Source: an uncultured Acidobacteriota bacterium (GTDB lineage Bacteria > Acidobacteriota > Vicinamibacteria > Vicinamibacterales > UBA2999). From it: DNA of 64,000 bases. Made by a program: the position numbers and the translations under genes. The notes below the pieces were generated by a model. The model searched no databases. It was not told the origin of the DNA and saw nothing but the letters and a program-made list of their open reading frames with translations. Below, in pieces: positions 19,607 through 36,434 of this stretch. The stretch's first letter is position 1. The number at the start of each line of letters is the position of its first letter. Location: assembly GCA_963807405.1 (NCBI GenBank), contig CAWEBU010000009.1, positions 881,068 to 945,067 of the forward strand, read 5' to 3'.

Positions 19607-19726
19607 GCGCGGGATGTTACACCTGGCGGGCCGCGCATCAGGCCAGGCCGCCAGGCGTGTGACGGTTGTTCGCTGACGGGCGCACCGGGGCCGGCCACGG
19701 GGCGGACGGCGGCATACACTGGCGCC

Positions 19727-20119
19727 ATGCCCACCGTTGAAACCTCCACTCCGCCCGGGACGCCGACGCCCATCGGCCCCTACAGCCACATCGCGCGCGT
19801 CGGGACGTCGGTCACCATCGGCGGCACGGCCGGCTTCGACCCGGCCACCGGCGAGCTGGCCGGAACGGACGTGTCATCGCAGACGCGGCAGATCCTCGAG
19901 TCGTTCCGCGTCATGCTGGCCTCGGTCGGCTCGGACCTCGCCCACGTCGTGCACGTCAGCGTGTTCCTGCGTCACATGACCGACTTCGACGCGATGAACC
20001 GCGCCTACGCGGAGGCGATGGGTGATCATCTCCCCGCGCGCACGGTGATCGGCGTGACCGAACTGCCGACGCCCCGTGTCCTGCTGACGATGAGCCTGAC
20101 CGCCGTCACCCGCGGCTGA
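19727..20119 (+). CDS. RidA/YjgF/UK114 family protein
   Basis: 'PTPIGPYS', 'GSDLAHVV..VFL..M.DFDAMN..Y' and 'PART'. Confidence 0.85.
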   Translation: MPTVETSTPPGTPTPIGPYSHIARVGTSVTIGGTAGFDPATGELAGTDVSSQTRQILESFRVMLASVGSDLAHVVHVSVFLRHMTDFDAMNRAYAEAMGDHLPARTVIGVTELPTPRVLLTMSLTAVTRG

Positions 20120-20124
20120 CCATC

Positions 20125-20174
20125 GTGACGGGACAGACCCCGTTACAACTGGTGACCGTGACAGACCCCGTTAC
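20125..20174. repeat. REP-like short palindromic repeats, copies 2 and 3 in tandem
   Basis: GTGACGGGACAGACCCCGTTAC (20125-20146) and GTGACCGTGACAGACCCCGTTAC (20152-20174). Confidence 0.6.
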
Positions 20175-20195
20175 ACGCCGTTACAATTGCGCAGC

Positions 20196-21992
20196 ATGTG
20201 GCGTCTTCCGCTGATGGCCGTCCTGGCCCTGGCGACCTGGCCGGCGCGCCAGGTGCCGGCGTCCGCACCGGCTGACCTCGTGATCGAGAAGAACGTCGCG
20301 GCGCCGATGCGCGACGGCGTGGTGTTGCGCGCGGATGTCTATCGGTCCGCCGCGCCGGGCCGACGCCCCGCCCTCCTGCAGCGCACGCCCTACTCCAAGA
20401 ATCCAGAGACGCCAGACAGTCAGTACCACCGTCTCGCGCGCGCCGGCTTCGTGGTGGTGGTGCAGGACACGCGCGGGCGCTACACATCGGACGGCGTGGC
20501 CGTGCCGCACGATGAGGGCGAAGACGGCTTCGACACCGTGGAGTGGGTGGCGCAGCTGCCGTACGTGGACGGCCGCGTCGGCATGTTCGGCGGCAGCTAC
20601 AGCGCCACGGTGCAGCTGCTGGCCGCGCCGCTTCGCCCGCCGCATCTGGTCGCGCTCTTCCCGTCGGCCTCCTACGCCAGCCGCTACGACATGGTGTTCC
20701 AGGGCGGCGCCTTCTATCTCGGCGACGGCCTGAGCTGGAACCTCGGCCAGGCCAAGGACGTGCGTCGCCGCACCCTCGAGCCCGGCGCCGACCGCGACGG
20801 CGCGCTCGGCCTGACGGCCGAGGAGCGGCGGCAGTTGCGCGACGAGTGGTACTGGCACCTGCCCCTGACGTCGATCGAGGCACTGCAGCTGCGCCGCTAT
20901 TCGCCCGGCTACTGGGACCTGCTCGCGCATCCCTCGTACGACCCCTTCTGGACGACCTTCGACGTGGCCGCGAAGCATCCGCAGTTCGAGGTGCCCGCCT
21001 ATCACCTCACCGGCTGGTACGACAGCCTGCTGAACGGCACGCTCGCCAACTTCAGCGGTCTGCGCGCCAACGCCGGCACCGAACGGGCGCGCGCGAACCA
21101 GCGACTTATCGTGGGCCCGTGGACGCACGCGCGGCCCACCACCGCCACCACGAAGATCGCGGACGTGGACTTCGGGCCCGAGGCCGGATTCGACTCCGAA
21201 GGCCTGATCGTGCGCTGGTTCCGGCATTGGATGCCGGTGCCGGCCGGCGCCGCATCCGCGCCCGACTGGCCGGGCGCGCCCGTGCGCCTGTTCCTGATGG
21301 GCGAGAACCGCTGGCGCGACGAGCAGGAGTGGCCGCTCGCGCGCGCGGTGCCGACGCCGTTCTACTTGCAGAGCGGCGGCCACGCCCGCAGCCTGGCGGG
21401 CGACGGACGGCTCGAGCGGGCGGCGCCGGCAGGGACGGCCGCCGTCCCGGACACGTTCACCTACGATCCGGCGACGCCCGTGCCCACGGGGCTGTCTGGC
21501 GCCTACTCCCGCATGCCGGTCGACCGCCGTGAGATCCAGCAGCGCGACGACGTGCTCGTCTACACCTCGGGTCCGCTGACCGCGCCGCTCGAGGTGACCG
21601 GGCCCGTGCGGCTCGTGATGTGGATCGCGTCGACGGCCCGCGACACCGACTTCACGGCCGCGCTCAGCGACGTCCAGCCCGACGGGAGTGCCCGCGCTCT
21701 CACCGACGGCATCCTCCGCGCGCGCTACCGGGCGAGCCGGACCGCGCCCGAGTTGCTCGAGCCCGGCCGGCCCTACGAGCTCACGATCGAGGTCGGCGCC
21801 ACCGGCAACGTGTTCCTGCCTGGCCACCGCATCCGCCTCGAAGTGTCGAGCAGCAACTTTCCGCGCTACGATCGCAATCCGAACACGGGCGCGCCGTTTG
21901 CCACCGACGCCGCGACCGTGCCCGCGCGTCAGTCCGTGTTCCACGATCTGTCCCGCCCGTCACGTCTCATCCTGCCGGTGATCCCGCGATGA
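20196..21992 (+). CDS. CocE/NonD family hydrolase (secreted)
   Basis: 'PMRDGVVLRADVY', 'RTPY', 'QDTRGRY.SDG', nucleophile 'GGSYSA', 'GPWTH' and 'SSSNFPRYDRNPNTG'. Confidence 0.9.
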   Translation: MWRLPLMAVLALATWPARQVPASAPADLVIEKNVAAPMRDGVVLRADVYRSAAPGRRPALLQRTPYSKNPETPDSQYHRLARAGFVVVVQDTRGRYTSDGVAVPHDEGEDGFDTVEWVAQLPYVDGRVGMFGGSYSATVQLLAAPLRPPHLVALFPSASYASRYDMVFQGGAFYLGDGLSWNLGQAKDVRRRTLEPGADRDGALGLTAEERRQLRDEWYWHLPLTSIEALQLRRYSPGYWDLLAHPSYDPFWTTFDVAAKHPQFEVPAYHLTGWYDSLLNGTLANFSGLRANAGTERARANQRLIVGPWTHARPTTATTKIADVDFGPEAGFDSEGLIVRWFRHWMPVPAGAASAPDWPGAPVRLFLMGENRWRDEQEWPLARAVPTPFYLQSGGHARSLAGDGRLERAAPAGTAAVPDTFTYDPATPVPTGLSGAYSRMPVDRREIQQRDDVLVYTSGPLTAPLEVTGPVRLVMWIASTARDTDFTAALSDVQPDGSARALTDGILRARYRASRTAPELLEPGRPYELTIEVGATGNVFLPGHRIRLEVSSSNFPRYDRNPNTGAPFATDAATVPARQSVFHDLSRPSRLILPVIPR

Positions 21993-24157
21993 TCCGACGC
22001 CCTGCGGTTCGTGCCGGTGTCCTGCTGCTGTCGGTGTCGCTTGGCGCCTGCGGCGGTGGTCCGCCACCTGCCGCCTCGGGACCCGCCGAGCGGCTGAAAC
22101 TTGGTTACACGCCAGCCACGTCGGCGAAGCAGCAGGACCTCGAAACGCGCTTCCGCACGCTGGTCTCCGCCGAGTCGATGTCGGCCCTCCACCAGCCGCT
22201 GACGCGGCGGCCGCATCCGGCCGGTTCCCCCGGCACCCTGGAAGTCGTGAAGTATCTGCAGGACACGCTCGCCGGCTTCGGCCTCGAGGTGGCGACGCAC
22301 GAGTACCAGGTGCTGCTGTCCGCCCCCCGCAAGGTCGAGGTGACCATGACGGGTCCCGCGCGGCGGGTCCTCAGCGTGCACGAGCCGGTCATGCCCGAGG
22401 ACCCGACCTCGAGCCATCCCGAACTGGGCGGCGGCTACGTCGCCTACTCGCCGTCCGGGACGGCGGCGGGTCAGGTCGTCTACGTGAACTACGGGCTGCC
22501 GGCCGACTACGCGGAGCTCGCCGCGCTCGGCGTGTCGGTCGAGGGGCGGATCGCGCTCGCCCGCTACGGCCGCAGCCACCGCGCCGTGAAGACGCACACG
22601 GCCGAGCAGGCCGGGGCCCGGGCGCTCATTCTCTACAGCGACCCCGGTGACGATGGCGACGCCCGCGGGCCGGCGTGGCCGAACGGCTACTGGCGCGGCG
22701 AGCAGATGGTGCAGCGGGGCAATGCCAAGTACAGCTGGTTCTGGCACGGCGATCCGCTCACGCCCGGCGTCGGCGCCACGGCCGAGGCACCGCGCCTGAC
22801 CGAAGCGGCGGCGCCGACGCTGCCGAAGATTCCGGTGCTCGCGCTCGCGTGGGGCGAAGCGCAACACCTGATGGCCGCGCTCGGCGGCGCCGACGCGCCG
22901 GTGCGCTTTCGCGGCGGCTTGAAGACGGCCTACAAGGTGGGCCCGGGCCCGGCCACCGTGCGTGTCACCGTCGACATGGACCAGGCCGTGCGCCCGATCT
23001 ACGACGTGGTGGCGACGATCAGGGGCCAGTCGACGCCGGAGCGCGTGGTGTTGTTCGGCACCCACCACGACGCCTGGACGTTTGGTGGCGTCGACCCGGG
23101 CACCGGGGCCACGGCCTTGCTCGAAACCGCGAAAGGCCTCGGCCAGCTCGTCAAGAGCGGCTGGACGCCGGCGCGCACCATCTCGTTCGCGTTCTGGGAC
23201 GCCGAGGAGTTCGGCCTGGTCGGCTCGACCGAGTACGCGGAGGAGTTCAAGACTCGCCTCCAGGACCAGCTCATCATGTACGTGAACATCGACATGTACA
23301 TGAAGGGCCGCTTCGATCCGGGCGGCGTGCCGTCGCTGTCGGCGTTCGTGGCCGATGTCGCGCGGGACGTGCCGGAGGGCGGCTCGACCGTGTTCGACGT
23401 GTGGAAGGCCGGCGAGGCCGCCCGGCAGAAGGCCGCCGATCCGGCCGCCTTCACGCCCGCCCTCAAGCCGCTCGGCAGCGGCGCCGACTTCGTGCCGTTC
23501 CAGGACCATCTCGCCGTGCCCACGATGGCCATCGAGTTCATCGGTGAGAACGGCTACGGCTTCGGCACCTACCACACGAACTACGACTCGCGGGCCTACG
23601 TCGAGCAGATTGCCGACCCCGGGTTCACCCAGGGCGTGCTGATGTCGCAGGTCCTCGGTACGATGGCGCTGCGCATGGCCGAGGCGGACGTGCTGCCGTT
23701 TCGCTTCTCCCACTACGTCGCGGCGCTCGGCACGGCCATCGACGATGTGGACACCTGGGCCGCGGCCGCGGGCCTGCCGGCCGAGTCGCAGGGCCTGCGT
23801 GTCCGTGCGCAGGGCGCGGCCACGGCGGCCCGCGACCTCGAAGCGGCGATCGACGCGGGACTGGCGGCCGGCACCCTGACCCGCGGCTCGGCCGTCGCAC
23901 TGAACGACCGCCTCGCCCGGATGGAACAGACACTCGCGGACGACGACGGTGCGCCCGAGACCAAGTGGTACCGTCACGTATTCTACGGGTGGAACATCTA
24001 CTCGCTCTACGACGGGCAGCCCTTCCCCGGACTGGCCGAAGCCTATCGGGTGAAGGACACGGGCCGCGTGGCCCACGAGCGCGCCCGCATCGAACGGGCG
24101 CTCGACCGGATGACGACGCAGCTCGTGGCGGCGACGCGTTCGGTGGACGGGCGCTGA
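21989..24157 (+). CDS. M28B peptidase (glutamate carboxypeptidase II/PSMA-like with PA domain), probable lipoprotein
   Basis: Lipobox 'LGAC'; 'YVNYG...DY', 'GDPLTPG', 'HHDAW.FGGVDP', 'AEEFG', 'GSGADF' and 'YHT.YD'. Confidence 0.88.
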   Translation: MIRRPAVRAGVLLLSVSLGACGGGPPPAASGPAERLKLGYTPATSAKQQDLETRFRTLVSAESMSALHQPLTRRPHPAGSPGTLEVVKYLQDTLAGFGLEVATHEYQVLLSAPRKVEVTMTGPARRVLSVHEPVMPEDPTSSHPELGGGYVAYSPSGTAAGQVVYVNYGLPADYAELAALGVSVEGRIALARYGRSHRAVKTHTAEQAGARALILYSDPGDDGDARGPAWPNGYWRGEQMVQRGNAKYSWFWHGDPLTPGVGATAEAPRLTEAAAPTLPKIPVLALAWGEAQHLMAALGGADAPVRFRGGLKTAYKVGPGPATVRVTVDMDQAVRPIYDVVATIRGQSTPERVVLFGTHHDAWTFGGVDPGTGATALLETAKGLGQLVKSGWTPARTISFAFWDAEEFGLVGSTEYAEEFKTRLQDQLIMYVNIDMYMKGRFDPGGVPSLSAFVADVARDVPEGGSTVFDVWKAGEAARQKAADPAAFTPALKPLGSGADFVPFQDHLAVPTMAIEFIGENGYGFGTYHTNYDSRAYVEQIADPGFTQGVLMSQVLGTMALRMAEADVLPFRFSHYVAALGTAIDDVDTWAAAAGLPAESQGLRVRAQGAATAARDLEAAIDAGLAAGTLTRGSAVALNDRLARMEQTLADDDGAPETKWYRHVFYGWNIYSLYDGQPFPGLAEAYRVKDTGRVAHERARIERALDRMTTQLVAATRSVDGR

Positions 24158-24173
24158 GAGGGATGGACGGGCG

Positions 24174-25331
24174 ATGAACGAGCTGCAGCAACTGCTCCTC
24201 TGGCAATGGAGCACCGGTGTGCAGGTCACGTCGCTCGTGATGATCGCGACGTTCTTCATGCTGCTGGCGCGATCCGACCGGAGGACCGAACTCCGCTGGT
24301 GGGCGTTTGCCTGGGCGGCCAACCTGCTGGCGCTGACCGTGACGCTCATCTACTGGAACGGCAGTCCGGGGGCGTGGCTGCCGGTGTTCTATGGCCTGTA
24401 CATCGGCGCCAAGACTGCCTTCGTGCTCCTCTTCGTGCAGGGCGTCTGGTCGCTGACCCGCCCCGCCGCCCGTCTGATGAGCGGCGCCACCCTTCTCGCC
24501 GCGGGCGTCGGCTACGGCCTCTTCGCCGCCGTGCTCCTCGAGTCGATCCCCGCCGTAGGCGTGGCGCAGCACCTGCCGATGGGCGTCGTCTTCGTCGTGC
24601 TGGCGATCAGCACGGCGCGCGCGCCGGGCCTCGTCTGGCTGGCGGCCGCCATCGCCGTTCGCGGCCTGGTCGCCCTCGCCGAGGGCAGCGCCTACGCCCT
24701 GCTGCTCACCGGGGCCTGGGAGGACGAGTGGCGGGCGGGTGCCGCGACATTCCTGTCGGCCAGCTCGGCCTTCGACATGAGTGCCGAGTGGCTGCTGGTG
24801 CTCGGCAGCGTGCTGGCCGTCTCCACGCGGCGGCAGCGCGATCTCGAGATGACCAATCGTGAGCTGCTGGCGGCGCAGCAATACCTGCGCACGGTGGCCG
24901 ACCGCGATCCCCTGACGACGCTGGCCAACCGGCGGGCCTTGCCGGGAATCCTGCGCGCGGTCCAGCCGGTCGGCGCCATCTTCCTGTTCTTCGATCTCGA
25001 CAACTTCAAGCAGCTCAACGACCGGCACGGACATCTGGCCGGCGACCGCTGTCTGCGCGACTTCGCCGGCGCACTGCGCGACTCCTTCCGCCCCGGCGAC
25101 CACCTGATCCGCTACGGCGGCGACGAGTTCCTGGTGGTGGCGCAGGGTCTCGATCGCGTGTCGGCCCTGGCCCGCGTCGAGGAGGTGTCGGCCCGTATCG
25201 GCCGCCACAATCAGGACGCGGTGCCCTACGGCTTCTCGGTCGGCATGGCCGAGCTCCTGGCGGAGGGACAGCCCGAGGCCGCGCTGCGCGCCGCCGACGC
25301 CGACATGTACCGCGCCAAGGCCGTGAAGTGA
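24174..25331 (+). CDS. Membrane-bound diguanylate cyclase
   Basis: Several TM helices followed by 'DPLTTLANRR', 'DLDNFKQLND..GH..GD', 'RYGGDEF' and 'AD..MY.AK'. Confidence 0.9.
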   Translation: MNELQQLLLWQWSTGVQVTSLVMIATFFMLLARSDRRTELRWWAFAWAANLLALTVTLIYWNGSPGAWLPVFYGLYIGAKTAFVLLFVQGVWSLTRPAARLMSGATLLAAGVGYGLFAAVLLESIPAVGVAQHLPMGVVFVVLAISTARAPGLVWLAAAIAVRGLVALAEGSAYALLLTGAWEDEWRAGAATFLSASSAFDMSAEWLLVLGSVLAVSTRRQRDLEMTNRELLAAQQYLRTVADRDPLTTLANRRALPGILRAVQPVGAIFLFFDLDNFKQLNDRHGHLAGDRCLRDFAGALRDSFRPGDHLIRYGGDEFLVVAQGLDRVSALARVEEVSARIGRHNQDAVPYGFSVGMAELLAEGQPEAALRAADADMYRAKAVK

Positions 25332-25349
25332 ACCGTCGGGCGGCGTCTG

Positions 25350-25666
25350 TTACTGCGGCGCTGTGAGGCGGATGGTCGTGCCGTCGATGAGATGGTCGAC
25401 GCTGACGGGCGCCCCGCCCGCCGGCCGTGGCTACTCGCTCGGTCCTGCCCGCTCCACGGGCGTACGAGAACCGCGCCGAAGAGGCGGCCGCCAGCTGACG
25501 GTGATGCCAGTTGCGCCAGCCACTGACGCGCCAGGGCATTCAGCGGCGTCGGCGCGCATGACGTCGCTTCCGCTGCGGCCGGCGCCAGGGCGGGCAGCGT
25601 CACCGCCAGCCACACGAACAGCGCGCCGACGAGACAAGGTTGCTGGCCCGGCCTGAGGAATCGCAT
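25350..25666 (-). CDS. Possible small exported hypothetical protein (frame broken)
   Basis: Signal-like N-terminus from the ATG at 25666; a plausible C-terminus 'APVSVDHLIDGTTIRLTAPQ*' lies in another frame. Confidence 0.25.
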
Positions 25667-25711
25667 GGCGTTCCAGGCGCAGTGCAGCGGTGACGTGCGC
25701 CGCCGCGCGGA

Positions 25712-26413
25712 TCATCGCGGGCAGATCGTGCCGAACGCGAACCCCTTCGCGCGCAGCGCCGGAATGATGCGATCCAGCGTCTGCACCGCGTAGCGTCGAT
25801 CGGCGCGTGGATTCTTGTGGTGCCCGTCGTGGATGACGAGGATGTCTCCATCGGACGACTCGCGGACGAGCCGCGGCACGAGGTCGTCGGCCGTGCGTTC
25901 CCGGAACCAGTTGAAGTCCCATAGCATCCAGCCCCACCCCACGACGGTGTAGCCCGCCTGGGCGGCGCCCATCAGCATCGGCACGCTCCGGTGTCCGGCG
26001 TGGGGACGGAAGGCGCGGCAGGCCTGCACGCCCGTGAGCAGTTCCAGCCTGGCGGCCGATTCCTGCAGCATCGAGGCCACCCACGTCGGGCGCCGGAACA
26101 TCGGCTCGCGCGAGTGCCAGTGCAGCGCCACGGCGTGGCCCTCGTCGGCGGCCCTTCGCACGATCGCCGCGGTGTCCCGCGTCAGGTGCCGGTCGATGGT
26201 GAAGAAGGTGGCGTGCGCACCATGTCTCGCCAGCACGTCGAGCACGGCGGGCGTGGCGGTCGGGTTCGGCCCGTCGTCGAAGGTCAGATAGACGGTCGGC
26301 ACGCCGGTGCGCGGCATCCGCCACACGGTGTGGCTCGTCACGTCGAGCAGGAATGGAAACGGCGCGAAGTGCGACAGCACCGCGAGGCCGATCGCCGCAA
26401 GGAGCACGACCAT
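25712..26413 (-). CDS. Polysaccharide deacetylase (CE4/NodB) family protein
   Basis: 'YLTFDDGP', 'ATFF', 'FRP..G' and 'VIHDG'; hydrophobic N-terminus. Confidence 0.85.
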   Translation of the reverse strand: MVVLLAAIGLAVLSHFAPFPFLLDVTSHTVWRMPRTGVPTVYLTFDDGPNPTATPAVLDVLARHGAHATFFTIDRHLTRDTAAIVRRAADEGHAVALHWHSREPMFRRPTWVASMLQESAARLELLTGVQACRAFRPHAGHRSVPMLMGAAQAGYTVVGWGWMLWDFNWFRERTADDLVPRLVRESSDGDILVIHDGHHKNPRADRRYAVQTLDRIIPALRAKGFAFGTICPR

Positions 26414-26504
26414 TCAGGATGTCTGTGGCCGGGCGGCAGGCCCGGCGCATTCCCAGCCGAGCATACGTCAGGCGGTCGCCTGGGGACCCTGGAGCGGCTC
26501 CGTC

Positions 26505-26548
26505 TTGACTTGCAACATTCGATTCATTACAGTGCAACAAGTGTTGCA
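26505..26548 (+). promoter_or_regulatory. Sigma-70 promoter with overlapping palindromic operator upstream of the chrB-like gene
   Basis: TTGACT (26505-10)-N17-TACAGT (26528-33); palindrome TGCAACA-AG-TGTTGCA (26533-48); extra half-site TGCAACA at 26511-17. Confidence 0.7.
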
Positions 26549-27577
26549 ATGACTGAATCAGTCCCTGCCCGCTGGCTGGTGCTGCTGTTCCAGGCCGCGG
26601 GGCGTTCGTCCAGCGCGCGGGTCCGGATCTGGCGCCGGCTGCAGGAGATGGGCGCGGTGCAGATCCGCCAGGCAGCCTACGTCCTGCCCAATCGCGAGCA
26701 GGCGCGCGAAGACCTCGAGTGGCTGAAGGCCGAGATCCTGGCCACAGGGGGCCAGGCCACGGTGCTGCTGGCAAGCGCCACCGACGGCTTCGCCGACGAC
26801 GAGATCGTCGCGGTGTTCCGGGCCGCGCGCGCCGCCGACGTCGCTCGATTGACCAGCCAGGGACGGGCACTGGTGCGCCGCCTGGCGCGCAGGGGCGAGC
26901 GCCCGGCGCGCGACGGGGTCGACCGGGCGACCGCGGCGTTCGTCGCGCGGTGCCGGCAGCTGGCAACCATCACCTTCTTCGACACGCCGGGCACGGCGGA
27001 ACTGGAGGAGCTCGTGGCGCAACTGACCAACTCGACCACCCGTGGCGCCGGCGGGGCCGGCACGTCTCGGACACTCGACCCGGCGGCCTACCGGCGGCGC
27101 CGGTGGATCACGCGGCCGCGGCCGGGCGTGGACCGCATGGCGTCGGCGTGGCTCATCCGCACCTTCATCGATCCAGAGGCCCGCTTCGCCTTCGCCGGCC
27201 AGCCGGAGAAGGACGCCGTGCCCTTCGACATGTTCGGCGTCGAGTTCGGCCACCAGGGCGACGCCTGCACGTTCGAGGTGTTGCGGACCCGGTTCGGCGT
27301 CGAGGACACGGCCGTGGACTGGATCGCGCGCATCGTGCACGACGTCGACCTTCGCGATCGGAAGTACGACGAGGCCGAGGCAGCGGGCGTGGAGCTGATG
27401 GTCGACGGCCTGCGCCGAGCCCATCCCGACGACGGCGACCTGCTCGAGCGCGGCATCGCGCTCTTCCACTCGCTCGCCAAGGGCTATCAGGCTCGCGTCC
27501 CGGAGCCGCGGACCAGGACGGCGACCACGCGGCGGGCCACCAAGCGCCCCCGATCGCGAGCGCGCGGCAGGAGCTAG
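26549..27577 (+). CDS. chrB: Chromate resistance protein ChrB-like regulator (ChrB N- and C-terminal domains)
   Basis: 'RVRIWRRLQ.MGAV....AYVLP', 'WITRPRPGVDRMASAWLIRTFID..A.F', 'PFDM.GVEFGH.GDACTFE' and 'IVHDVDL'. Confidence 0.82.
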   Translation: MTESVPARWLVLLFQAAGRSSSARVRIWRRLQEMGAVQIRQAAYVLPNREQAREDLEWLKAEILATGGQATVLLASATDGFADDEIVAVFRAARAADVARLTSQGRALVRRLARRGERPARDGVDRATAAFVARCRQLATITFFDTPGTAELEELVAQLTNSTTRGAGGAGTSRTLDPAAYRRRRWITRPRPGVDRMASAWLIRTFIDPEARFAFAGQPEKDAVPFDMFGVEFGHQGDACTFEVLRTRFGVEDTAVDWIARIVHDVDLRDRKYDEAEAAGVELMVDGLRRAHPDDGDLLERGIALFHSLAKGYQARVPEPRTRTATTRRATKRPRSRARGRS

Positions 27578-27604
27578 CACACCGTTCGGAACAGGAGGCA
27601 CAGC

Positions 27605-28947
27605 ATGCAGTGCGATCGACGCTCGTTCCTCGGTGGTCTGGGGGCGGTCGTTGCCACCGGGCCGGCCAATCACTCCGCGGCGGACGCCCAGACGGCGGCG
27701 GCGCCCGACCGGTCCAGCGCCTGGCGTCGGGAGTTTCCGGCTCTCGACCAGCGGGTCCACGGACACCGGCTCGCCTACCTGGACAGCGCCGCGACGACGC
27801 TGCGGCCGCGGGCCGTCATCGACGCCGTGTCGCGCTTCTACGAGACGGACAACGCCAATCCCGGGGCCGCCCTCCATACCCTGGCGCGGCGCTCGGCGAG
27901 CCGCTACGCGGCCGCGCGGGCGCGGGTCGCCACCTTCCTGAACGCCGACCCGAGCGAGGTGGTGTTCACCAAGGGCACGACCGAGGGCCTCAACCTGGTG
28001 GCGACCGTCTTCGCCGCCGAGCTGAAGCCGGGCGACGAGATCGTGCTGACGGTGGCCGAGCACTACTCGAACCTGCTGCCGTGGCGGGCACTGGCCACGC
28101 GCACCGGGGCCATCGTCCGCGTGGTCGACATCGACGACCACGGCCGCCTGATGGCGGCGCGGTTCGCTGCCGCGATCACGTCGCGGACGAGGCTCATCGC
28201 GTTCGGCCACGTCTCGAACGTGCTTGGCCTGGTGGCGCCGGCGGCCGAGATTCTGTGCCGCGGCCCGGGCCCGCGGGGTGCCGGTCGTCATCGACGCGGC
28301 GCAGTCGGCGCCCCATCTCAGGCTCGACGTCCGGGCCCTCGACTGCGACTTCCTCGCCTTCTCATCGCACAAGATGCTCGGCCCGATGGGGGTCGGCGTG
28401 CTGTGGGCGCGGGGAAGCTGGCTCGATCGCCTGCCGCCGTATCAGGTGGGCAGCAACATGGCCCACGAGGTGGAGGGCGACAGCGCCCAGTTCGAGCACG
28501 GCGCGCTGAAGTACCAGGCCGGCACGCCCAATGTGTCCGGGCCGGTTGGGCTGGCCGCGGCGCTCGACATGCTGGACGGCATCGGCATCGACCAGGTGCG
28601 AGGGCACGACGACGCGCTGGTGGCCCATGCGCGCGAAGGCTTCGCGCGCGTCCCGGGCCTGCGGGTACTCGGCACGCTCGACGACGCCCACCGGCTGCCG
28701 GTGTTCACGTTCTCGCTGCCGGGCGTGACCGCCGGCGCCCTCGTGCAGGCGCTCGACGCCGAAGGCGTGGCGGTCCGCGGCGGCGACATGGCGGCGCTGC
28801 CGCTCCTCAGTCGGCTTGGGCCTTCGCGAGGCGGTGCGCGCGTCGTGCTACCTCTACACCAGCCTCGACGACATCGACCGGCTCGTCGACGGGCTGCAGC
28901 GCCAGGCCGGTCGCGCCGTCACGCCGAAATTCATCGTTCGCGGCTGA
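27605..28947 (+). CDS. SufS/class V aminotransferase-like PLP enzyme with Tat-type leader, lacking the catalytic Cys (frameshifts near 28253 and 28820)
   Basis: YLDSAATT, FTKGTTEGLN, EHYSN, DAAQSAPH, SSHKMLGP (PLP Lys), AGTPN, 'RGGDMAALP' and 'RASCYLY...DIDRL', spread over three frames. Confidence 0.8.
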
Positions 28948-28978
28948 TCTCGGCCCTCCAGCGCGTGCAGAACACCGA

Positions 28979-29001
28979 GGCCGGACCGGCCGGGTCCGGC
29001 C
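28979..29001. terminator. GC-rich hairpin after the SufS-like gene
   Basis: GGCCGGACC-N5-GGTCCGGCC perfect 9-bp stem; no U-tract. Confidence 0.35.
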
Positions 29002-29319
29002 ACCCCGGTTGTCCGCTCGCCTTCTACCGGGCCGCAGGTCGGACTGCTCGGGCCCTCCCGCCAACGGTGCTGAGGGGAACGGCGGCCGATCGGCGCTATC
29101 CTCCGCAGGCCGCCTGCCAGTCGCGCTCAGGGCGGCGACCCCCTTCCTCTCGGCGTCGTCCGGCGTTGACGCGTGGTGCGCACAACGGTGCGCGTCCACC
29201 CGGCTCGTGACGGCCTGGTCCCAGGCCGCCCTCGCACTACCAGCAGTCGCTGCAGGGAAGGCCACGCCTCGTCGTGGCTCGTGCCGTCACGCTCGATGGC
29301 ACATCTCCAGGAGGTCGCC

Positions 29320-30657
29320 ATGGTTGATTCGACTCGTCGCTTCGTCGAACGTTCGCCGGGAATCGCCCCTGCCTCAGCGGCCAGTCGCCGTCTGCGGCTC
29401 GCCGGGTCGGTCCTGACGGTGATGGCGCTGACGGCCGCCCCGCGCGTGGCGGCCGCTCAGAGCGTGGACACCGTCGTGCAGTGGAACCAGCAGATGCTGA
29501 CGGCCGTGTTCACCCCGGGGGCGAACCCGTCGACGATCTTCGTCTCGCGGCCGTTGGCCATCGCCAGCGTGGCGATGTTCGACGCCGCCAACAGCTTCGA
29601 CCGCGTCTACCAGCCGTATGCGACATGGGCCCAACCGGCTGCCGGGGCGTCGCCTGACGCCGCCGTCGCCCAGGCCGCGCACGACACGCTCGTGGCGCTG
29701 CTGCCATCACAGACCGCGACCCTCGACGCGGCACTCGCGGCCACCCTGGCCGGCATCCCGCCTCAGGCGGCGGCCGACGGCGCGGTGGTGGGCGCCGCTG
29801 CCGCCAGGGCCATCCTGGAACTGCGTACCGGCGATGGCTGGGAACGGCCCTTCGCCCCCTTGCTACTGCCCAGCCTGCCGGGCTTCTGGAAGCCGACGCC
29901 GCCGGCCAACTCGGCCGCCGCCTTCACCAACTACCCGGACGTGGTCGGGTTCATCATCGCGAACGGCCGCCGCTTCATGGTCGAAGGGCCGCCGGCGCTG
30001 ACGAGTGAGCGCTACGCGACCGATTTCAACCAGGTGAAGGCGTGGGGGGCGGTCAACAGCACCGTCCGTTCCGCCGAGCAGACGCTCATCTCGAACCAGT
30101 GGGCCGGCGTCGGCACCACCACCAATTTCAGTCGGGTGTGGAGCGGCGTGGTGAACAGTCTGGCGCGCAGCCGCGGCTGGAGCGGTGCGGAACTCACGCG
30201 CGCGCAAGCGCTCGTCAGCATGACCTTTCACGACGCGCTGCTGACGACATTCACCGGCAAGTTCGTCTACGGATTGTGGCGGCCGGTGACGGCCATCCGC
30301 GAGGCCGACACCGACGGCAACCCGGCCACCGACGCCGATCCGGCCTGGCTGCCGCTGCTGGCCACCCCGCCCTACCCGAGCGCGCCGGGCAACATGGCCT
30401 GCATCGGCTCGTCGCTGGCGCGCACGCTGGCGCGGCTGTTCGGTCAGGACGACATTCCGTTCTCCGTGACGTGGGCCGGGACTGGCACCAACCCGGCAAC
30501 GACGCGGCAGTACAACGGGTTTCGCCAGCTCGGCGACGAGCAGGCCTACAGCCGCATCTGGGGCGGCATCCACTTCGAGTTCGAGACGCTGTCGAGCATC
30601 GGCCAGTGCGCGCGGCTCGGCGACTACGCGGTCGATAACGTCCTGCGCAGACGCTGA
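29320..30657 (+). CDS. Secreted vanadium-dependent haloperoxidase/PAP2-like protein with divergent motif II
   Basis: AGGAGG RBS; signal peptide; 'PPAL.S..YA.DFN.VK..G', 'KFVYGLWRPVTAIR', 'W.PLL.TPPYPS' and 'SRIWGGIHF'. Confidence 0.78.
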   Translation: MVDSTRRFVERSPGIAPASAASRRLRLAGSVLTVMALTAAPRVAAAQSVDTVVQWNQQMLTAVFTPGANPSTIFVSRPLAIASVAMFDAANSFDRVYQPYATWAQPAAGASPDAAVAQAAHDTLVALLPSQTATLDAALAATLAGIPPQAAADGAVVGAAAARAILELRTGDGWERPFAPLLLPSLPGFWKPTPPANSAAAFTNYPDVVGFIIANGRRFMVEGPPALTSERYATDFNQVKAWGAVNSTVRSAEQTLISNQWAGVGTTTNFSRVWSGVVNSLARSRGWSGAELTRAQALVSMTFHDALLTTFTGKFVYGLWRPVTAIREADTDGNPATDADPAWLPLLATPPYPSAPGNMACIGSSLARTLARLFGQDDIPFSVTWAGTGTNPATTRQYNGFRQLGDEQAYSRIWGGIHFEFETLSSIGQCARLGDYAVDNVLRRR

Positions 30658-30695
30658 CGCTGACGGCGCCGCGCCCATGCTAGCGTGGCGACGTG

Positions 30696-31295
30696 ATGAG
30701 CCTCGCCGAGTTGTACGCCCGCCACGCTCGGCGCTTCGACCGCGCCCGGGTGCGCTCACTGATGGAACGGCCGTACCTCGAGATGGCGGCGACGTTGGCG
30801 CCCGCCCCGGGTCGTGTCCTGGACCTTGGCTGCGGCAGCGGGGAACCGCTGGCGCGCTACTTCGTCGAGCACGGGTATCACGTCACCGGCATCGACACCG
30901 TCCGCGAGATGCTCGAGATGTGCCGGGCGAGATTCCCCGGGATGACGTGGCAGCAGGCCGACATGCGTCACCTGGACCTGCCACAGCCGTTCGAGATCGT
31001 GATCGCGTGGGACAGCTTCTTCCATCTGGGACGTGACGATCAGCGGCAGATGTTCGCCACGTTCCGGCGGCACACCGCGCCGGGTGGCGTCCTCGTGTTC
31101 ACCAGTGGGCCGGCTGAGGGGGAAGTGATGGGCGATCTCTTCGGAGATGCGCTCTACCACGCGAGCCTGGACACGCCGGAGTATGCGCGGCTGCTCGACC
31201 GGCACGGATACGACGTGGTCATCCACCGGGTCGAAGACCCGGACTGCGGAGGCCACACGGTGTGGATCGCGCAGCGGCGGAACGTCGACGCGTGA
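30696..31295 (+). CDS. Class I SAM-dependent methyltransferase
   Basis: 'VLDLGCGSG', 'QADMR' and 'AWDSFFHL'. Confidence 0.88.
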   Translation: MSLAELYARHARRFDRARVRSLMERPYLEMAATLAPAPGRVLDLGCGSGEPLARYFVEHGYHVTGIDTVREMLEMCRARFPGMTWQQADMRHLDLPQPFEIVIAWDSFFHLGRDDQRQMFATFRRHTAPGGVLVFTSGPAEGEVMGDLFGDALYHASLDTPEYARLLDRHGYDVVIHRVEDPDCGGHTVWIAQRRNVDA

Positions 31296-31339
31296 GCTCG
31301 TGTGAGCGTGGCCGACGGTGGAAGGCGGCTGCGCTACTT

Positions 31340-31685
31340 CCCAAAGGTGTCGACGCCGAGAACGCGCCCTTCACCATCTTCTCCGGCCGGTGGGTCGTCC
31401 CGAACCTGCATCACGGCTCGACCCAGGCCGGCCCGATCTTCTTCCGCACCTTCTTCGGCCTCGGCTTCCTCGACGTGCACGTGGAGATGCCGGGGCGTGG
31501 CCCAGAACCCCCTCAACCCGCTCGCCGACTTCGGCACGGTCTACTTCGACGAGCTCTCGGCCTTCACCACCAGCGGCACGCGCCTGCTGGTCAACGGCAC
31601 AGCCACCTCGATGGTCGACAACGGGGTGACGCTGGCGCGCCCGATCCGGCTCAACGACTTCGCGTTCAGGATCGATCACGCCTGA
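31340..31685 (+). pseudogene. Gene fragment, possibly the C-terminus of a G1 (peptidase A4-like) glutamic peptidase
   Basis: Coding-like sequence with no clear start and a frame break near 31495; the tail 'PLADFGTVYF...SMVDNG' is reminiscent of G1 peptidases. Confidence 0.3.
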
Positions 31686-31810
31686 GCTCGCGCCTCGGGT
31701 CCGCGGCGGCTCGACCAGCCGAGGCGAGGTCGAGGCCGTCCGGGAACCGCCCCGGAATTGTGTTGCGCGTCGTGCGGCGGGGCACTAGCATCGGCGCGGA
31801 GTCGCGCACC

Positions 31811-34800
31811 ATGGATACGGGCCGACGGCAGTTCCTCAAAGGCTCGACGCTTGCCGGCGCGGCCGTCTCGGTGCTGGGTTTCGACCTCGGCCCGGCCGCC
31901 GCCGACGTGCGCGCGCTGAAGATCGCCCGCACGACCGAGACGCGGTCGACCTGCCCCTACTGCTCGGTGAGCTGCGGCGTCATCATCCACACGCTGGGGG
32001 ACAAGTCGCGCAACGTCACGCCGACCGTCGTGCACGTCGAGGGCGACCCCGACCACCCGATCAACCAGGGGACGCTCTGCCCCAAGGGCATCACCCTCAA
32101 GCAGAACATCGTCAACGACCGGCGGCTCACCACGGTGAAGTACCGCGCGCCGGGGGCCACGGCCTGGGAAGAGAAGTCCTGGGACTGGGCGATCGACCGC
32201 ATGGCGCGCCTCGTGAAGGACACGCGCGATCGTCATTTCGTCGAGGCCGACGCCCGCGGCCGTGCACGGTGCGAGGCGCTGACCGCGCTCGGGGTCATCG
32301 GCGGCTGCACCGACACCAACGAGATCAACTACCTGCTCGTGAAGGCGTTTCGCGCCGGCCTCGGCGTCGTGCCGATCGAGCAGCAAGCCCGGATATGACA
32401 CGGACCCACGGTGGCCAGTCTGGCCGCCACGTTCGGACGCGGGGCGATGACCAACGGCTGGACCGACATCCGGAACGCCGATGTCGTCCTCGCCATGGGC
32501 GGCAACCCGGCCGAGAATCACCCAGTCGGCTTCCGCTTCGTCATGGACGCCAAGCGCAACCGCCGCGCGAAGCTGGTCTCGGTCGACCCCCGCTACAACC
32601 GCACCTCGGCGGTCGCTGACGCGCTTCGTCCAGATCCGCGCCGGCACCGACATCGCGTTCCTCGGCGGGCTGATTCACTACGCGCTGTCGAAGAACCGCA
32701 TTCACCGCGAGTACGTGCGGCTCTTCACCAACGCCTCGTTCCTCGTCAACGACGACTACGCGTTCGACGAGAAGCAGGGCGTGTTCTCGGGCTGGAACGA
32801 CCAGGCCAAGGCCTACGCCGACACCTCGAGCTGGGCCTATCAGCTCGACGCCAGGGGCCACGCCCGCGTGGATCCCACGCTCGAGCATCCGCGGTCGGTG
32901 TTCCAGGTGATGCGCACCTTCTATGCGCGCTACACGCCGGAGACGGTGGCCGGCATCTGCGGCTGCTCGGCAGCGGACTTCGAGAAGGCGGCCGAGCTCA
33001 TCACGAGCACCTTCGAGGCGGACAAGGTCGGCACCATCTGCTACGCCCTCGGCTGGACGCACCACAGCCACTCGGTACAGCTCATCCACGCCGCCGCCAT
33101 GCTGCAGTTGCTGCTCGGCAACATCGGCCGTCCGGGCGGCGGCCTGAACGCGCTGCGCGGCCACTCGAACATCCAGGGCGGCACCGATTGCGGCATGGCG
33201 TACCACAACCTGCCCGGCTACATTCCCATCCCGAAGGCGGACCACGCCACGCTGCCGGCGTTCGTGTCCGCGGTGACGCCGCCGGCCCTGCGGCCGACGG
33301 CCACGAACTTCTGGTCGAACACCGACCGCTTCGTCGTCAGCCAGCTCAAGGCCTACTACGGCGCCGCCGCCACGCCCGCCAATGGCTTCGGCTACGACTT
33401 CCACCCGCGGCTGCCGCAATCACCCGCCGGCGCCGACGAGAACTGGAGCTGGGCCTACATGTTCGACCGCATGTTCCGCGGCGACATGGAGGGCATGTTC
33501 GCCTTCGGCATGAACCCGGTCAGCAACGGACCGCACTCGAAGAAGGTCGTGGCGGCGCTGTCGAAGCTCAAGTGGCTGGTGGTGGCCGAGAACTTCGAGC
33601 AGGAAACCGCCGCCTTCTGGCGCGACGACATCCAGGCGCTCGTGAACCAGACGCCGGCCGACGTCGGCACCGAGGTCTTCATGCTGCCGGCGGCGAACTT
33701 CGCCGAGAAGGACGGCGCGTTCGTCGAACTCGGCGCGCTGGATTCAGTGGAAGTGGAAGGCCATCGATCCGCCGGGCGAGGCCCAGCCCGACCAGGACAT
33801 CATCGCCCGCATCTTCCTGGCCGTGCGCGATCTCTACGCGCGCGAGGGCGGCGCCTACCCGGCGCCGATTGCCGCGCTCGACTGGTGGTACTCGAACCCC
33901 GCCAGTCCCTCGCTCGACGAAGTGGCCAAAGAGATCAACGGCTGGGCTCTCGAGGACGTGAGGGACGCGGCCGGCACCGTCGTGCTGCGCAAGGGGCAGC
34001 AGCTCGCACGGTTCACCGACGCGCAGGCCGACGGCACGACCGCGTCCGGCAACTGGCTCTACATCGGCATGTACACCGATGCCGGCAACCTGACCCAGCG
34101 CCGATCGTTCGCCGATCCGAGCGGGCTCGGCCGCTATCCGGAGTGGGGCTTCAGCTGGCCAGCCAACCGGCGCATCCTCTACAACCGCTGCTCGGCCGAT
34201 GGCGCCGGCCAGCCGTGGGACGCCTCGCGCGTCGGCATCGAGTGGAACGGCACCCGCTGGACCGGCGACGTGCCCGACTTCGGCGCCGACAGCCCGCCCG
34301 AGGCCGAAGCCGGGGCCTTCCTGATGCTGCCGGAAGGGGCAGGCCCGCCTGTTCGTGCCGGGCCAGTTCGTCGAAGGACCGTGGTCGGAGCACTACGAGC
34401 CGGCCGAGTCGCCGGTGGCCAATCCCGCTCCACCCGGCGCAGAGCAGCAATCCCGCCATCCACCGCTTCGACGACCGAGCACGACGTGCTCGGCACGGCC
34501 GACCGCTATCCGATCGTCTGCACCACCTACCGGCTGACCGAGCACTTCCACTACTGGACCAAGAACAACCCCTACAGCATGCAGCTGCAGCCGGAGTTCT
34601 TCGTCGAGATCTCCGAGGAGCTGGCGAGCAGAGAAGGCGATCGCCAGCGGCGATCGTGTGCGCGTGACCTCGGCCCGCGGTGAGATCGAAGGCAAGGCGA
34701 TGGTGACCAGGCGCATCAAGCCGCTGCTGGTGGCCGGCAAGGTGACGCACCAGATCGGCTTCCCGATCCACTGGGGCTTCCTCGGCCGCGGCCAGCAGCG

Positions 34801-34903
34801 CGGCTCGCTGGCCAATCTCGTGACGCCGACCGTCGTCGATCCCAACTCACACGCGCCGGAGTACAAAGGCTTCCTCGTGGCGCTCGACAAGGTGGAGGCC
34901 TAG
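31811..34903 (+). CDS. fdnG: Formate dehydrogenase-N/O type alpha subunit, selenocysteine-containing (several frameshifts)
   Basis: Tat leader GRRQFLKG; CPYCSVSCG...CPKG; 'QARI-TGA-HGPTVASLA.TFGRGAMTN'; GGNPAENHP; ALRGHSNIQG; WPANRRILYNR; TTYRLTEHFHYWT; PEYK.FLV. Confidence 0.92.
32410..32428 (+). promoter_or_regulatory. Bacterial SECIS element
   Basis: Hairpin GGTGGCC-AGTCT-GGCCGCC starting 11 nt after the in-frame TGA (32396-32398), with GU in the loop. Confidence 0.85.
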
Positions 34904-34908
34904 CGCCG

Positions 34909-35781
34909 ATGGCCGCCACCCTCGACATCGTCCGCGTCTCCGGCACCACGGCGCCGGCGCCGGGCCTGCGCACGACCCCGCAGCTCGTCAAGCTCATCGA
35001 CACCTCGACCTGCATCGGCTGCAAGGCGTGCGAGGTGGCGTGCCAGGAGTGGAACGACCTGCCGCCCGAACCAACGACGCAGGACGGCACCTACCAGACG
35101 CTGCCCGAGACGACCGCGCGCTTCTGGAACCTCATCAAGTTCAGCGAGCACGAGAGCCCGAAGGGCTTCCACTGGCTGATGCGCAAGGACCAGTGCATGC
35201 ACTGCGTCGAGCCGGGCTGCCTGATCGCCTGTCCGGCGCCGGGCGCCATCGTGCAGTACGCCAACGGCATCGTCGACTTCGAGCAGGACGCCTGTATCGG
35301 CTGCGGCTACTGCATCACCGGCTGCCCGTTCAACGTGCCGAAGTTCGCGGCCGAGACCAACCGCGTCTACAAGTGCACGCTGTGCGTGGACCGCGTGGCC
35401 GAGGGCCTGCAGCCGGCCTGCGTCAAGGCGTGTCCCACCAGCTGCCTGCAGTTCGGCACCAAGGACGCCATGCTGGAGGTGGCCGGACACCGTGTCGAAC
35501 AGCTCAAGGAGGACGGCTTCGCCCAGGCCGCCGTCTACGATCCGCCCGGCGTCGGTGGCACCGGCGTCGTGAGCGTGCTGGCGTTCGGCGACCGCCCCGA
35601 GCTCTACGGCCTGCCGAAGGATCCGACGGTGCCGGCGGCGGTGCGGGTGTGGAAGGGCGCACTCAAGTGGACGGGCAATGCCGCCCTGCTCGGCGGCCTG
35701 TTCGTGGCGGCGCTGCACTACATCCGCTACGGCAGAAAGCACGGGCCCGATGCGGTGCCGTCCAGGGAGGACGGCGTATGA
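34909..35781 (+). CDS. fdnH: Formate dehydrogenase iron-sulfur (beta) subunit
   Basis: CIGCKACEVAC, CMHC..PGC..AC, CIGCGYCITGC and CTLC.DR...G..PAC...C; C-terminal TM helix. Confidence 0.93.
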   Translation: MAATLDIVRVSGTTAPAPGLRTTPQLVKLIDTSTCIGCKACEVACQEWNDLPPEPTTQDGTYQTLPETTARFWNLIKFSEHESPKGFHWLMRKDQCMHCVEPGCLIACPAPGAIVQYANGIVDFEQDACIGCGYCITGCPFNVPKFAAETNRVYKCTLCVDRVAEGLQPACVKACPTSCLQFGTKDAMLEVAGHRVEQLKEDGFAQAAVYDPPGVGGTGVVSVLAFGDRPELYGLPKDPTVPAAVRVWKGALKWTGNAALLGGLFVAALHYIRYGRKHGPDAVPSREDGV

Positions 35782-36434
35782 ACGGCTCCCGTCGTCTCGT
35801 CCGCTATCCGTTCGGCGAGCGCCTCGTGCATGCGTCGGCGGCCGTCTCGTACGTCTACCTGCTGCTGACCGGGCTCGCGTTCTGGTCGCCGGCCTTCTAC
35901 TGGCTGGCCATCGTGCTCGGGGGCGGCTACCTGTCGCGCGTGCTGCATCCGTGGGCCGGCGTGGTCTTCGCGCTGGTGGTCGCCCGCATGTTCGTGATGT
36001 GGCGCAGCCAGATGCGGACCACCGCGGCCGACCGCGAGTGGCGCGGCGCCATGACCCACTACGTGCGCAACGAGGACGACCAGGTGCCGGCGACGGGGAA
36101 GTTCAACTTCGGACAGAAGCAGCTGTTCTGGGTGATGACGTGGGCGGCCCTCGTGCTGCTGGTATCGGGGATCGTGCTGTGGGTGCCGCACTGGTTCCCG
36201 GCCGCACTCGCCTGGGTGCGCGAGGTGGCGATCCTGACGCACGCCATCGCCGCGCTCGTCACGATGGGAGCGTTCATCGTGCACCTCTACATGGGACTGT
36301 TCGTCGTGCCCGGCGGCCTGCACGCCATCGTGCACGGCGACGTGACCGAGGCCTGGGCGCGGCATCACCATGCGCTGTGGGCCGACGACGTGCGCGGCCG
36401 CGTCGTGCCGGCTCCCCGTGACGCCGATCGCTGA
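35778..36434 (+). CDS. fdnI: Formate dehydrogenase cytochrome b (gamma) subunit
   Basis: 'ERLVH', 'LHPWAG', 'GKFNFGQK', 'H......IVHLYM' and 'WARHHH..W'. Confidence 0.9.
   Translation: MNGSRRLVRYPFGERLVHASAAVSYVYLLLTGLAFWSPAFYWLAIVLGGGYLSRVLHPWAGVVFALVVARMFVMWRSQMRTTAADREWRGAMTHYVRNEDDQVPATGKFNFGQKQLFWVMTWAALVLLVSGIVLWVPHWFPAALAWVREVAILTHAIAALVTMGAFIVHLYMGLFVVPGGLHAIVHGDVTEAWARHHHALWADDVRGRVVPAPRDADR

Follow-up and report, generated by a model that had tools for sequence, protein, structure and literature searches.

The stretch of 64,000 nucleotides analyzed here (the window) comes from an uncultured member of the Acidobacteriota (Vicinamibacterales, UBA2999) and contains, directly downstream of chrB, a gene for a SufS-like protein that carries a leader of the twin-arginine type (Table 1). 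SufS-type enzymes are cytoplasmic sulfur donors that depend on pyridoxal 5'-phosphate (PLP), and their chemistry relies on one cysteine. The SufS-like ATG lies 27 nt past the end of chrB, the only ChrB gene of this genome (single ChrB_C match), and is preceded at a distance of 6 nt by the ribosome-binding site GGAGG (aggagg). The same genome also encodes a canonical SufS, which is 41% identical to the SufS-like protein.

According to PMC8300815, group II cysteine desulfurases share the consensus R-x-G-H-H-C-A, in which the Cys forms the persulfide. A preliminary description of the window had reported the loop R-G-G-D-M-A-A-L-P at this place, together with an intact PLP lysine motif SSHK. Both observations are confirmed. 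The loop codons (cgc ggc ggc gac atg gcg gcg ctg ccg) occupy 28776-28802, with GAC ATG GCG GCG at 28785-28796, and an ungapped alignment with the nearest solved structure, B. subtilis SufS (365 bits), places D-M-A opposite H-H-C; the SSHK motif is encoded at 28362-28373, with the PLP Lys codon at 28371-28373.

The reading frame of the gene changes twice. When an intact homologue of 438 residues was used as the query against the genome, it matched three consecutive pieces with its residues 1-218, 215-407 and 404-437; the second piece includes DAAQS, SSHK, GSNMAH and the loop. In the gene-call sources, the deposited call for this locus is a read-through open reading frame (ORF) of 603 aa, and one source labels the enzyme as a cysteine desulfurase/selenocysteine lyase, a label that the active site contradicts.

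Table 1. Features of the window discussed in the text, in positional order.
Feature	Position	Strand	Basis and remarks
Segment absent from genome G003, about 6.5 kb	25332..31784	.	blastn of the window against G003
Palindrome TGCAAC-AAGT-GTTGCA, 16 bp, candidate ChrB operator at the chrB start	26533..26548	.	pattern scan
chrB (ChrB_N + ChrB_C)	26543..27577	+	PF09828 136.6 bits, PF20229 40.9 bits; start set by alignment
SufS-like gene, whole	27605-28947	+	one SufS-family PLP protein in three frames with two 1-base insertions
Leader of twin-arginine type, MQCDRRSFLGGLGAVVATGPANHSAADA (MQCDRRSFLGG...ADA)	27605..27688	+	RR codons 27617-27622
SufS-like piece 1, frame 1, residues 1-216	27605..28252	+	PF00266 170 bits, profile 2-161; TIGR01979 200.5 bits
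First extra base (..gag att c tgt gcc..), frame 1 to 2	28251..28253	+	intact homologues read A-E-I-C-A here
SufS-like piece 2, frame 2	28254..28820	+	PF00266 167.7 bits, profile 164-346; TIGR01979 186.5 bits
Second extra base, in or beside the run gggc, frame 2 to 3	28818..28821	+	homologues read P-L-L-x-R-[FL]-G-[LV]
SufS-like piece 3, frame 3, LREAVRASCYLYTSLDDIDRLV..., stop TGA 28945-28947	28822..28947	+	TIGR01979 18.5 bits, profile 370-397
Formate dehydrogenase (FDH-N type) operon	31814-37254	+	alpha (Tat leader), Fe4S4, 4Fe-4S dicluster subunit, cytochrome b, FdhE

Frameshifts in the window copy

The two frameshifts are most likely local errors of the assembly. Relative to a genome of the same genus (G003, 85% DNA identity), the window contains at least 18 isolated insertions of one base between 32623 and 40929, including six in the alpha subunit gene of formate dehydrogenase (FDH) and at least 12 in the trkA region. 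Isolated missing bases are almost absent, and the indels at 19.7-25.3 kb form compensating pairs. FDH alpha is a single frame of 1043 aa with one TGA in G003 but is split in the window, and the sole ChrA homologue of the genome, located far from chrB on another contig (G000:C6:3120876-3122135), is also split over several frames. The assembly is otherwise good, and this cluster of insertions has the appearance of polishing that failed in one region. A point against this explanation is that rpoB, rpoC and secA (about 11.7 kb) are intact in the assembly, which rules out a genome-wide long-read indel error and restricts the errors to particular regions.

It is rather unlikely that the window copy is a pseudogene, in which case the frameshifts would be real and the function lost through a genuine recent inactivation. 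Such an event is consistent with the occurrence of two frame changes inside 570 bp, with the deposited read-through call, with the three intact genes just mentioned and with the accessory nature of the gene, found in 3 of 40 relatives. However, both changes are single extra bases of the same kind that breaks FDH alpha, the trkA region and ChrA. Furthermore, the pieces contain no in-frame stops, the middle one is 80% identical to an intact homologue, and both the ribosome-binding site and the operon layout are preserved. Public reads gave no verdict on this issue: the runs have small shares (at most 0.10), and contigs from four runs bridge neither frameshift site.

The D-[ML]-A clade and its leader

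A search with the first 216 residues of the SufS-like protein returned hundreds of intact proteins of 430-450 aa, the best 119 of which were tallied. The loop reads R-[GA]-G-D-[ML]-A-[AS]-x-P in 113 of them, and the remaining six are truncated or broken gene calls; the H-H-C loop is found in none of the 119. As had been supposed from the window sequence, the replacement of the loop is thus no accident. The motif AEHYSN, found in 104 homologues, takes the place of EHHAN in SufS, and GSNMAH stands for GGEM in nearly all of them. The Cys of the RASC motif, previously named as a possible substitute for the missing residue, is not conserved, with C at this position in 89 homologues, A in 13, L in 5, G in 3 and the motif not found in 9. 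The sole invariant Cys of the D-[ML]-A clade is that of GCDF, which is also present in canonical SufS. Other residues invariant in the alignments are the PLP Lys, the D and Q of DAAQS, the H of EH, the T of GTP and both substrate-binding Arg.

Overall, the clade resembles SufS and CsdB (5J8Q/5XT5 and 1JF9/1I29) in the class V PLP fold, the alignment over the full length, S-x-H-K, DAAQS, GTP and the two Arg, and differs from them in D-[ML]-A, EHYSN, GSNMAH and the RR leader. A quick maximum-likelihood tree was computed for 63 sequences with the loop columns kept in the alignment. In it, the 26 D-[ML]-A sequences form a single branch (SH-aLRT 100, stem 0.83) among 31 H-H-C SufS, and their sister is a Longimicrobiaceae SufS from a suf operon (support 91). 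The clade is shown by this tree to be a monophyletic offshoot inside the SufS (group II cysteine desulfurase) family. The homologue tally, the alignment and the tree together bear out the description of the protein as a PLP enzyme that descends from SufS and lacks the Cys for persulfide formation.

The scores of the sufS model TIGR01979 stay below its cut-off of 475.1 bits for an intact homologue (P0003, 444.1 bits) as well as for each piece of the window copy, which fits the generic names given to these proteins by the sources. The best E-value among 40 clade members is 9.1e-145, and a few of them may reach the cut-off. A search of the ESM Atlas returned generic class V clusters only. Besides the three relatives mentioned above, two genomes out of a further 400 sampled from the phylum encode a clade member, and all the carriers belong to one family, while source names and loci indicate additional members in metagenome-assembled genomes of Vicinamibacterales, Gemmatimonadaceae and Dehalococcoidia.

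The proposal of a twin-arginine type leader at the N-terminus holds at the level of a conserved motif. RR-x-[FLIVMW] occurs within the first 60 residues of 112 of the 119 homologues, and the other seven have shorter called N-termini, so that the homologues neither keep the catalytic Cys nor generally lack the RR pair. The pair is invariant in alignment A4; the window motif is D-R-R-S-F-L, and the clade motif is [DT]-R-R-x-[FW]-[LI]. Among 109 scored leaders, the +3 position is occupied by F in 85 and W in 18, the +4 position by L in 79 and I in 19, and A-x-A is present in 64; hydrophobicity is moderate, with a median of 1.86 for the best 10-residue Kyte-Doolittle mean. The mature domain begins near residue 40, which matches approximately residue 10 of SufS, and the RR stretch, a leader of about 35 residues, is therefore an added N-terminal extension. 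An intact TatC (223 bits) is encoded in the window genome. On these grounds, we infer that the SufS-like protein is exported by the twin-arginine translocation (Tat) system.

Linkage to chrB and a candidate operator

To judge from the gene neighborhoods, the conserved partner of the SufS-like gene is chrB, which the preliminary description did not mention. Loci of the clade were collected from metagenome contigs by a scan with a clade-specific DNA pattern, which yielded at least 80 listed loci, 61 encoding clade members and 19 representing chance matches. An earlier scan of genome contigs, based on patterns from alignment A1 that are common with canonical SufS, had given one clade member (L001) in 80 loci. 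One candidate, L002, was rejected, since despite 49% identity it has the H-H-C loop of canonical SufS and lies in a suf operon with SufBD and NifU. In contrast, genes for SufB/C/D/E/U or NifU are absent from the neighbors of clade genes, as scanned in 147 ORFs of 27 listed metagenome loci (the neighbor scan).

ChrB is encoded in 35 of the 61 clade loci listed, and in all of the 20 listed loci that extend at least 1200 bp on both sides; grouped at 95% identity, these form 14 clusters, all with ChrB. The distance between the two genes is at most 304 bp in 18 loci of this set, and in the other two it is 2.0-2.5 kb, with a major facilitator superfamily (MFS) transporter in between. The arrangement varies among the 35 listed loci: chrB is upstream and divergent in 16, downstream on the same strand in 11, upstream on the same strand in 5 and downstream on the opposite strand in 3. 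So varied an arrangement is better explained by selection for proximity than by inherited synteny. ChrB was likewise found at all six genome loci of the clade, being adjacent in the window, G019, G008 and G242, and present also in G001, where it lies 5 kb from the SufS-like gene with ChrA between them, and on a Gemmatimonadaceae contig. By comparison, ChrB is absent from all 96 canonical SufS loci inspected (967 kb). In the neighbor scan, ChrB is the sole Pfam family common to most loci; the others encountered are MFS_1 (3 loci), DUF5916 and the generally abundant MacB/FtsX.

In relatives that possess ChrB without the SufS-like gene, chrB adjoins ChrA, MFS transporters, DUF1259 (which we take to be the LpqO/LppY family), porin O/P, an oxyanion-type substrate-binding protein or DUF5916. 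The envelope genes at the chrB loci L244-L252 (G015, G012, G017, G037, G029, G018, G001, G008 and G005) change from locus to locus and include phosphate-selective porin O/P and substrate-binding proteins of the SBP_bac_11 type. Viewed against these neighborhoods, the SufS-like gene seems to belong to a set of envelope effectors that can replace one another within a ChrB regulon.

The palindrome TGTAAC-N4-GTTACA was derived from AT-rich words common to the divergent intergenic regions. The clade loci (382 kb) contain 17 exact copies of it, and 22 copies if up to one mismatch is allowed; the shuffle means are 0.01 and 0.31, respectively. Of the 33 loci with at least 60 nt of upstream sequence, 12 have the palindrome centered 29-81 nt 5' of the RR codon. 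When up to two mismatches were allowed, each of 14 genome-derived stretches (209.7 kb) gave one match (shuffle mean 1.4, maximum 5), which falls at the chrB start in 13 stretches, including the window, and at the start of the SufS-like gene in one (G001). Nine of the 13 sites at chrB starts belong to chrB loci of relatives without the SufS-like gene. At each of the chrB loci L244-L252, a single palindrome of this kind marks the chrB start. The distribution of these palindromes suggests a definable ChrB regulon in this lineage, and, together with the gene arrangement, it points to control of the SufS-like gene by ChrB. Another palindrome, GTGTTATATATATTACAC, is located 5' of the SufS-like gene in a sub-clade with chrB downstream (L124, about 2170-2200; L156, about 600-625; positions refer to the loci oriented with the SufS-like gene on the plus strand and are not locus coordinates) and may be a variant operator.

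A similar organization is known for chromate resistance determinants. In chrBACF of O. tritici TnOtChr, an AT-rich inverted repeat is located just 5' of chrB (PMC3817168). The clade loci agree with ChrB-controlled chromate determinants in that chrB is first in the operon or divergent from its target and has an AT-rich inverted repeat upstream. They differ in that the effector is a PLP enzyme with predicted Tat export, and ChrA is encoded elsewhere in the window genome or was not found nearby. A structural model of ChrB (L108:7768-8829, pLDDT 87) was compared with known folds using Foldseek/VIA. Its N-domain resembles the PaaX regulator and Cas2 folds. For the C-domain, the best match is an uncharacterized H. 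pylori protein (6MTZ, Z 11.6), followed by a DHH-type PAP phosphatase (Z 8.0). A prediction of a complex between the SufS-like protein and ChrB gave no answer (score 0.00) and weighs neither way.

Candidate reaction and possible role

With the pocket intact and the nucleophile gone, persulfide transfer is impossible and thiol-free chemistry remains. It appears fairly probable that the SufS-like protein is a Tat-exported, cysteine-independent PLP lyase under ChrB control. The protein would fold with PLP in the cytoplasm and then pass through the Tat system. In the periplasm, it would carry out a cysteine-independent PLP reaction on an alpha-amino acid, most likely a C-S or C-Se cleavage that involves no enzyme nucleophile. 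We infer this type of reaction only by exclusion. Candidate reactions include the beta-lysis of cystine, elimination from cysteine sulfinate, S-sulfocysteine or selenocyst(e)ine and, as a third option, a decarboxylation like that of PvdN. The periplasm is oxidizing, and cystine is the form of cysteine expected there. More speculatively, the invariant residues that are new in the clade, namely the Asp of G-D-M-A, the Tyr of EHYSN and the His of GSNMAH, could hold the far half of a substrate with two heads, for instance cystine. Expression would be governed by the adjacent ChrB, acting as a sensor of oxyanions (chromate) through the AT-rich palindromic operator, and the enzyme would be an effector of the ChrB regulon beside ChrA, MFS transporters, the LpqO-like DUF1259 and anion porins.

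The cyst(e)ine C-S lyase C-DES of Synechocystis offers a precedent for the beta-lysis: PMC8300815 describes it as a NifS-like PLP enzyme that has no conserved Cys in the active site and whose product, in place of an enzyme persulfide, is a free persulfide or sulfide. We regard chemistry of the C-DES type as the most likely for the clade. In contrast to the clade, C-DES is cytoplasmic, has been described as a monomer and has no known link to chrB; this comparison is one of published description.

Several observations speak against export or against ChrB control. The Pfam model TAT_signal (PF10518) matched none of 37 clade members at E ≤ 0.5 and was silent on the N-terminal piece of the window copy, and yet it matched the FDH alpha leader of the window (E = 6.6e-4); hence, the leader call rests on the motif, the hydrophobicity and A-x-A. 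Eight of 12 ChrB-positive relatives have ChrB without the SufS-like gene. The palindrome, at up to one mismatch, precedes the SufS-like gene in only those 12 of 33 loci, and other sub-clades show different AT-rich motifs with GTAAC half-sites, as inspected by eye only. Finally, ChrA is nearby in only one of the six genome loci and is absent from the neighbor scan, so that a chromate-specific role would be speculative.

Among the alternative functions, a periplasmic tailoring enzyme similar to PvdN or PtaA, which would decarboxylate or transaminate a secreted metabolite or an envelope component by a reaction that involves no sulfur chemistry, seems quite unlikely. These two proteins are the only PLP-containing Tat substrates cited in the accessible portion of a 2026 review on Tat (PMC13673990), and the NCBIfam PvdN model (NF051467) matches all 40 clade members scanned from residue 3-4 on, leader included. 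However, these matches are weak compared with the cut-off of 650 bits (61.4 bits for the window piece, 69.5 bits for P0003) and with the score of the sufS model for P0003, and the clade branches inside SufS. Moreover, PvdN and PtaA take part in pyoverdine tailoring, while no pyoverdine, siderophore or nonribosomal peptide synthetase genes were found near the SufS-like gene in the window or in the neighbor scan.

The preliminary description had proposed a periplasmic selenocysteine or cystine lyase and had noted a selenoprotein FDH about 3 kb away. A cysteine-independent periplasmic lyase is still a reasonable reading, and the FDH is real: its alpha gene begins about 2.9 kb 3' of the SufS-like gene and has the selenocysteine TGA (32396-32398) in the canonical context ARI-[TGA]-HGPTVA. 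It is the link to selenium that does not stand, and a dedicated periplasmic selenocysteine lyase serving selenium metabolism together with this FDH is very unlikely. In favor of such an enzyme are the loss of the catalytic Cys from an otherwise intact PLP site and the E. coli CsdB/SufS Cys-to-Ala enzyme, which reportedly keeps selenocysteine lyase and cysteine sulfinate desulfinase activity. On the other hand, G003 has the FDH operon directly after a GGDEF gene and encodes no member of the D-[ML]-A clade. The blastn alignments place window positions 19711-25279 and 31785-37257 on contiguous G003 DNA with about 76 bp between them, from which it follows that about 25.33-31.78 kb of the window is an inserted or lost segment of 6.5 kb. 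In addition to chrB and the SufS-like gene, this segment holds a polysaccharide deacetylase on the minus strand, a vanadium-haloperoxidase-like ORF and an S-adenosylmethionine (SAM) methyltransferase. FDH genes are present neither beside the clade genes of G019, G001 and G008 nor in the neighbor scan, and the proximity of FDH to the SufS-like gene is, by this comparison of loci, apparently accidental. Selenoprotein synthesis is a cytoplasmic process that a periplasmic selenocysteine lyase would not supply. The NCBIfam model for selenocysteine lyase, SclA (NF040779), gives 165.2 bits against a cut-off of 525. Finally, the active-site Cys is conserved in selenocysteine lyase (PMC3266270), in contrast to the D-[ML]-A clade.

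It is extremely unlikely that the RR stretch is not an export signal and that a cytoplasmic SufS-like protein takes part with ChrB in relaying sulfur or assists it in sensing: the silence of TAT_signal, the C-terminal domain of ChrB, reported as rhodanese-like by Branco and Morais (PMC3817168), and its invariant Cys (C-T-F-E), two invariant His, invariant Asp and many conserved Arg (ChrB_C, alignment A3) would agree with this, but an enzyme without the catalytic Cys forms no persulfide for a rhodanese to accept, the RR motif and the hydrophobic stretch reside on an extension that canonical SufS lacks, and the frequent divergent arrangement, the common palindrome and the PaaX-like N-domain fit regulation. 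Rhodaneses were absent among the listed Foldseek/VIA matches of the C-domain, for which such a fold stays possible.

Altogether, the data point to a periplasmic enzyme whose function lies in oxyanion stress and not in selenium metabolism. In the full-text literature searched, we found no description that pairs ChrB or Tat export with PLP enzymes of the desulfurase type. The loss of the Cys, the move to the periplasm and the acquisition of control of the chromate-sensor type, all in a widespread branch of soil bacteria, would constitute a clear case of neofunctionalization. It would also add a new class of effectors to chromate and oxyanion resistance, which so far comprises efflux, superoxide dismutase-like and reductase functions, and would define a ChrB operator and regulon in Acidobacteriota and Gemmatimonadota.

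A more specific proposal, which we advance as doubtful but possible, is that the chrB/SufS-like pair represents an extracytoplasmic arm of the defense against oxyanions such as chromate, in which the ChrB-induced lyase splits periplasmic cystine or a related sulfur or selenium amino acid. The persulfide, sulfide or sulfite released outside the cytoplasm would then reduce Cr(VI) before it enters the cell, or would replace the sulfate uptake that chromate blocks. On this proposal, Tat export of a PLP enzyme would be seen for the first time apart from pyoverdine tailoring, and no SufS descendant had previously been found to mobilize sulfur outside the cytoplasm. The basis for this proposal is that persulfide, sulfide and sulfite reduce Cr(VI) chemically; a role of the enzyme in chromate reduction is speculative.

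The remaining genes of the 6.5-kb segment, namely the haloperoxidase-like ORF, the methyltransferase and the deacetylase, were rejected as parts of the chrB/SufS-like module, having no tblastn counterpart in 85 related loci. The ORF at 29170-30657 (plus strand) looks secreted and has no Pfam match. It is homologous to a vanadium-dependent haloperoxidase (PDB 4CIT, E = 7.7e-15), with weaker matches to vanadium chloroperoxidases, and would represent a second oxyanion-binding protein in the same island as the oxyanion sensor gene chrB. The SAM-dependent methyltransferase at 30684-31295 (plus strand) shows a weak match to the tellurite resistance protein TehB (E = 1.3e-5).

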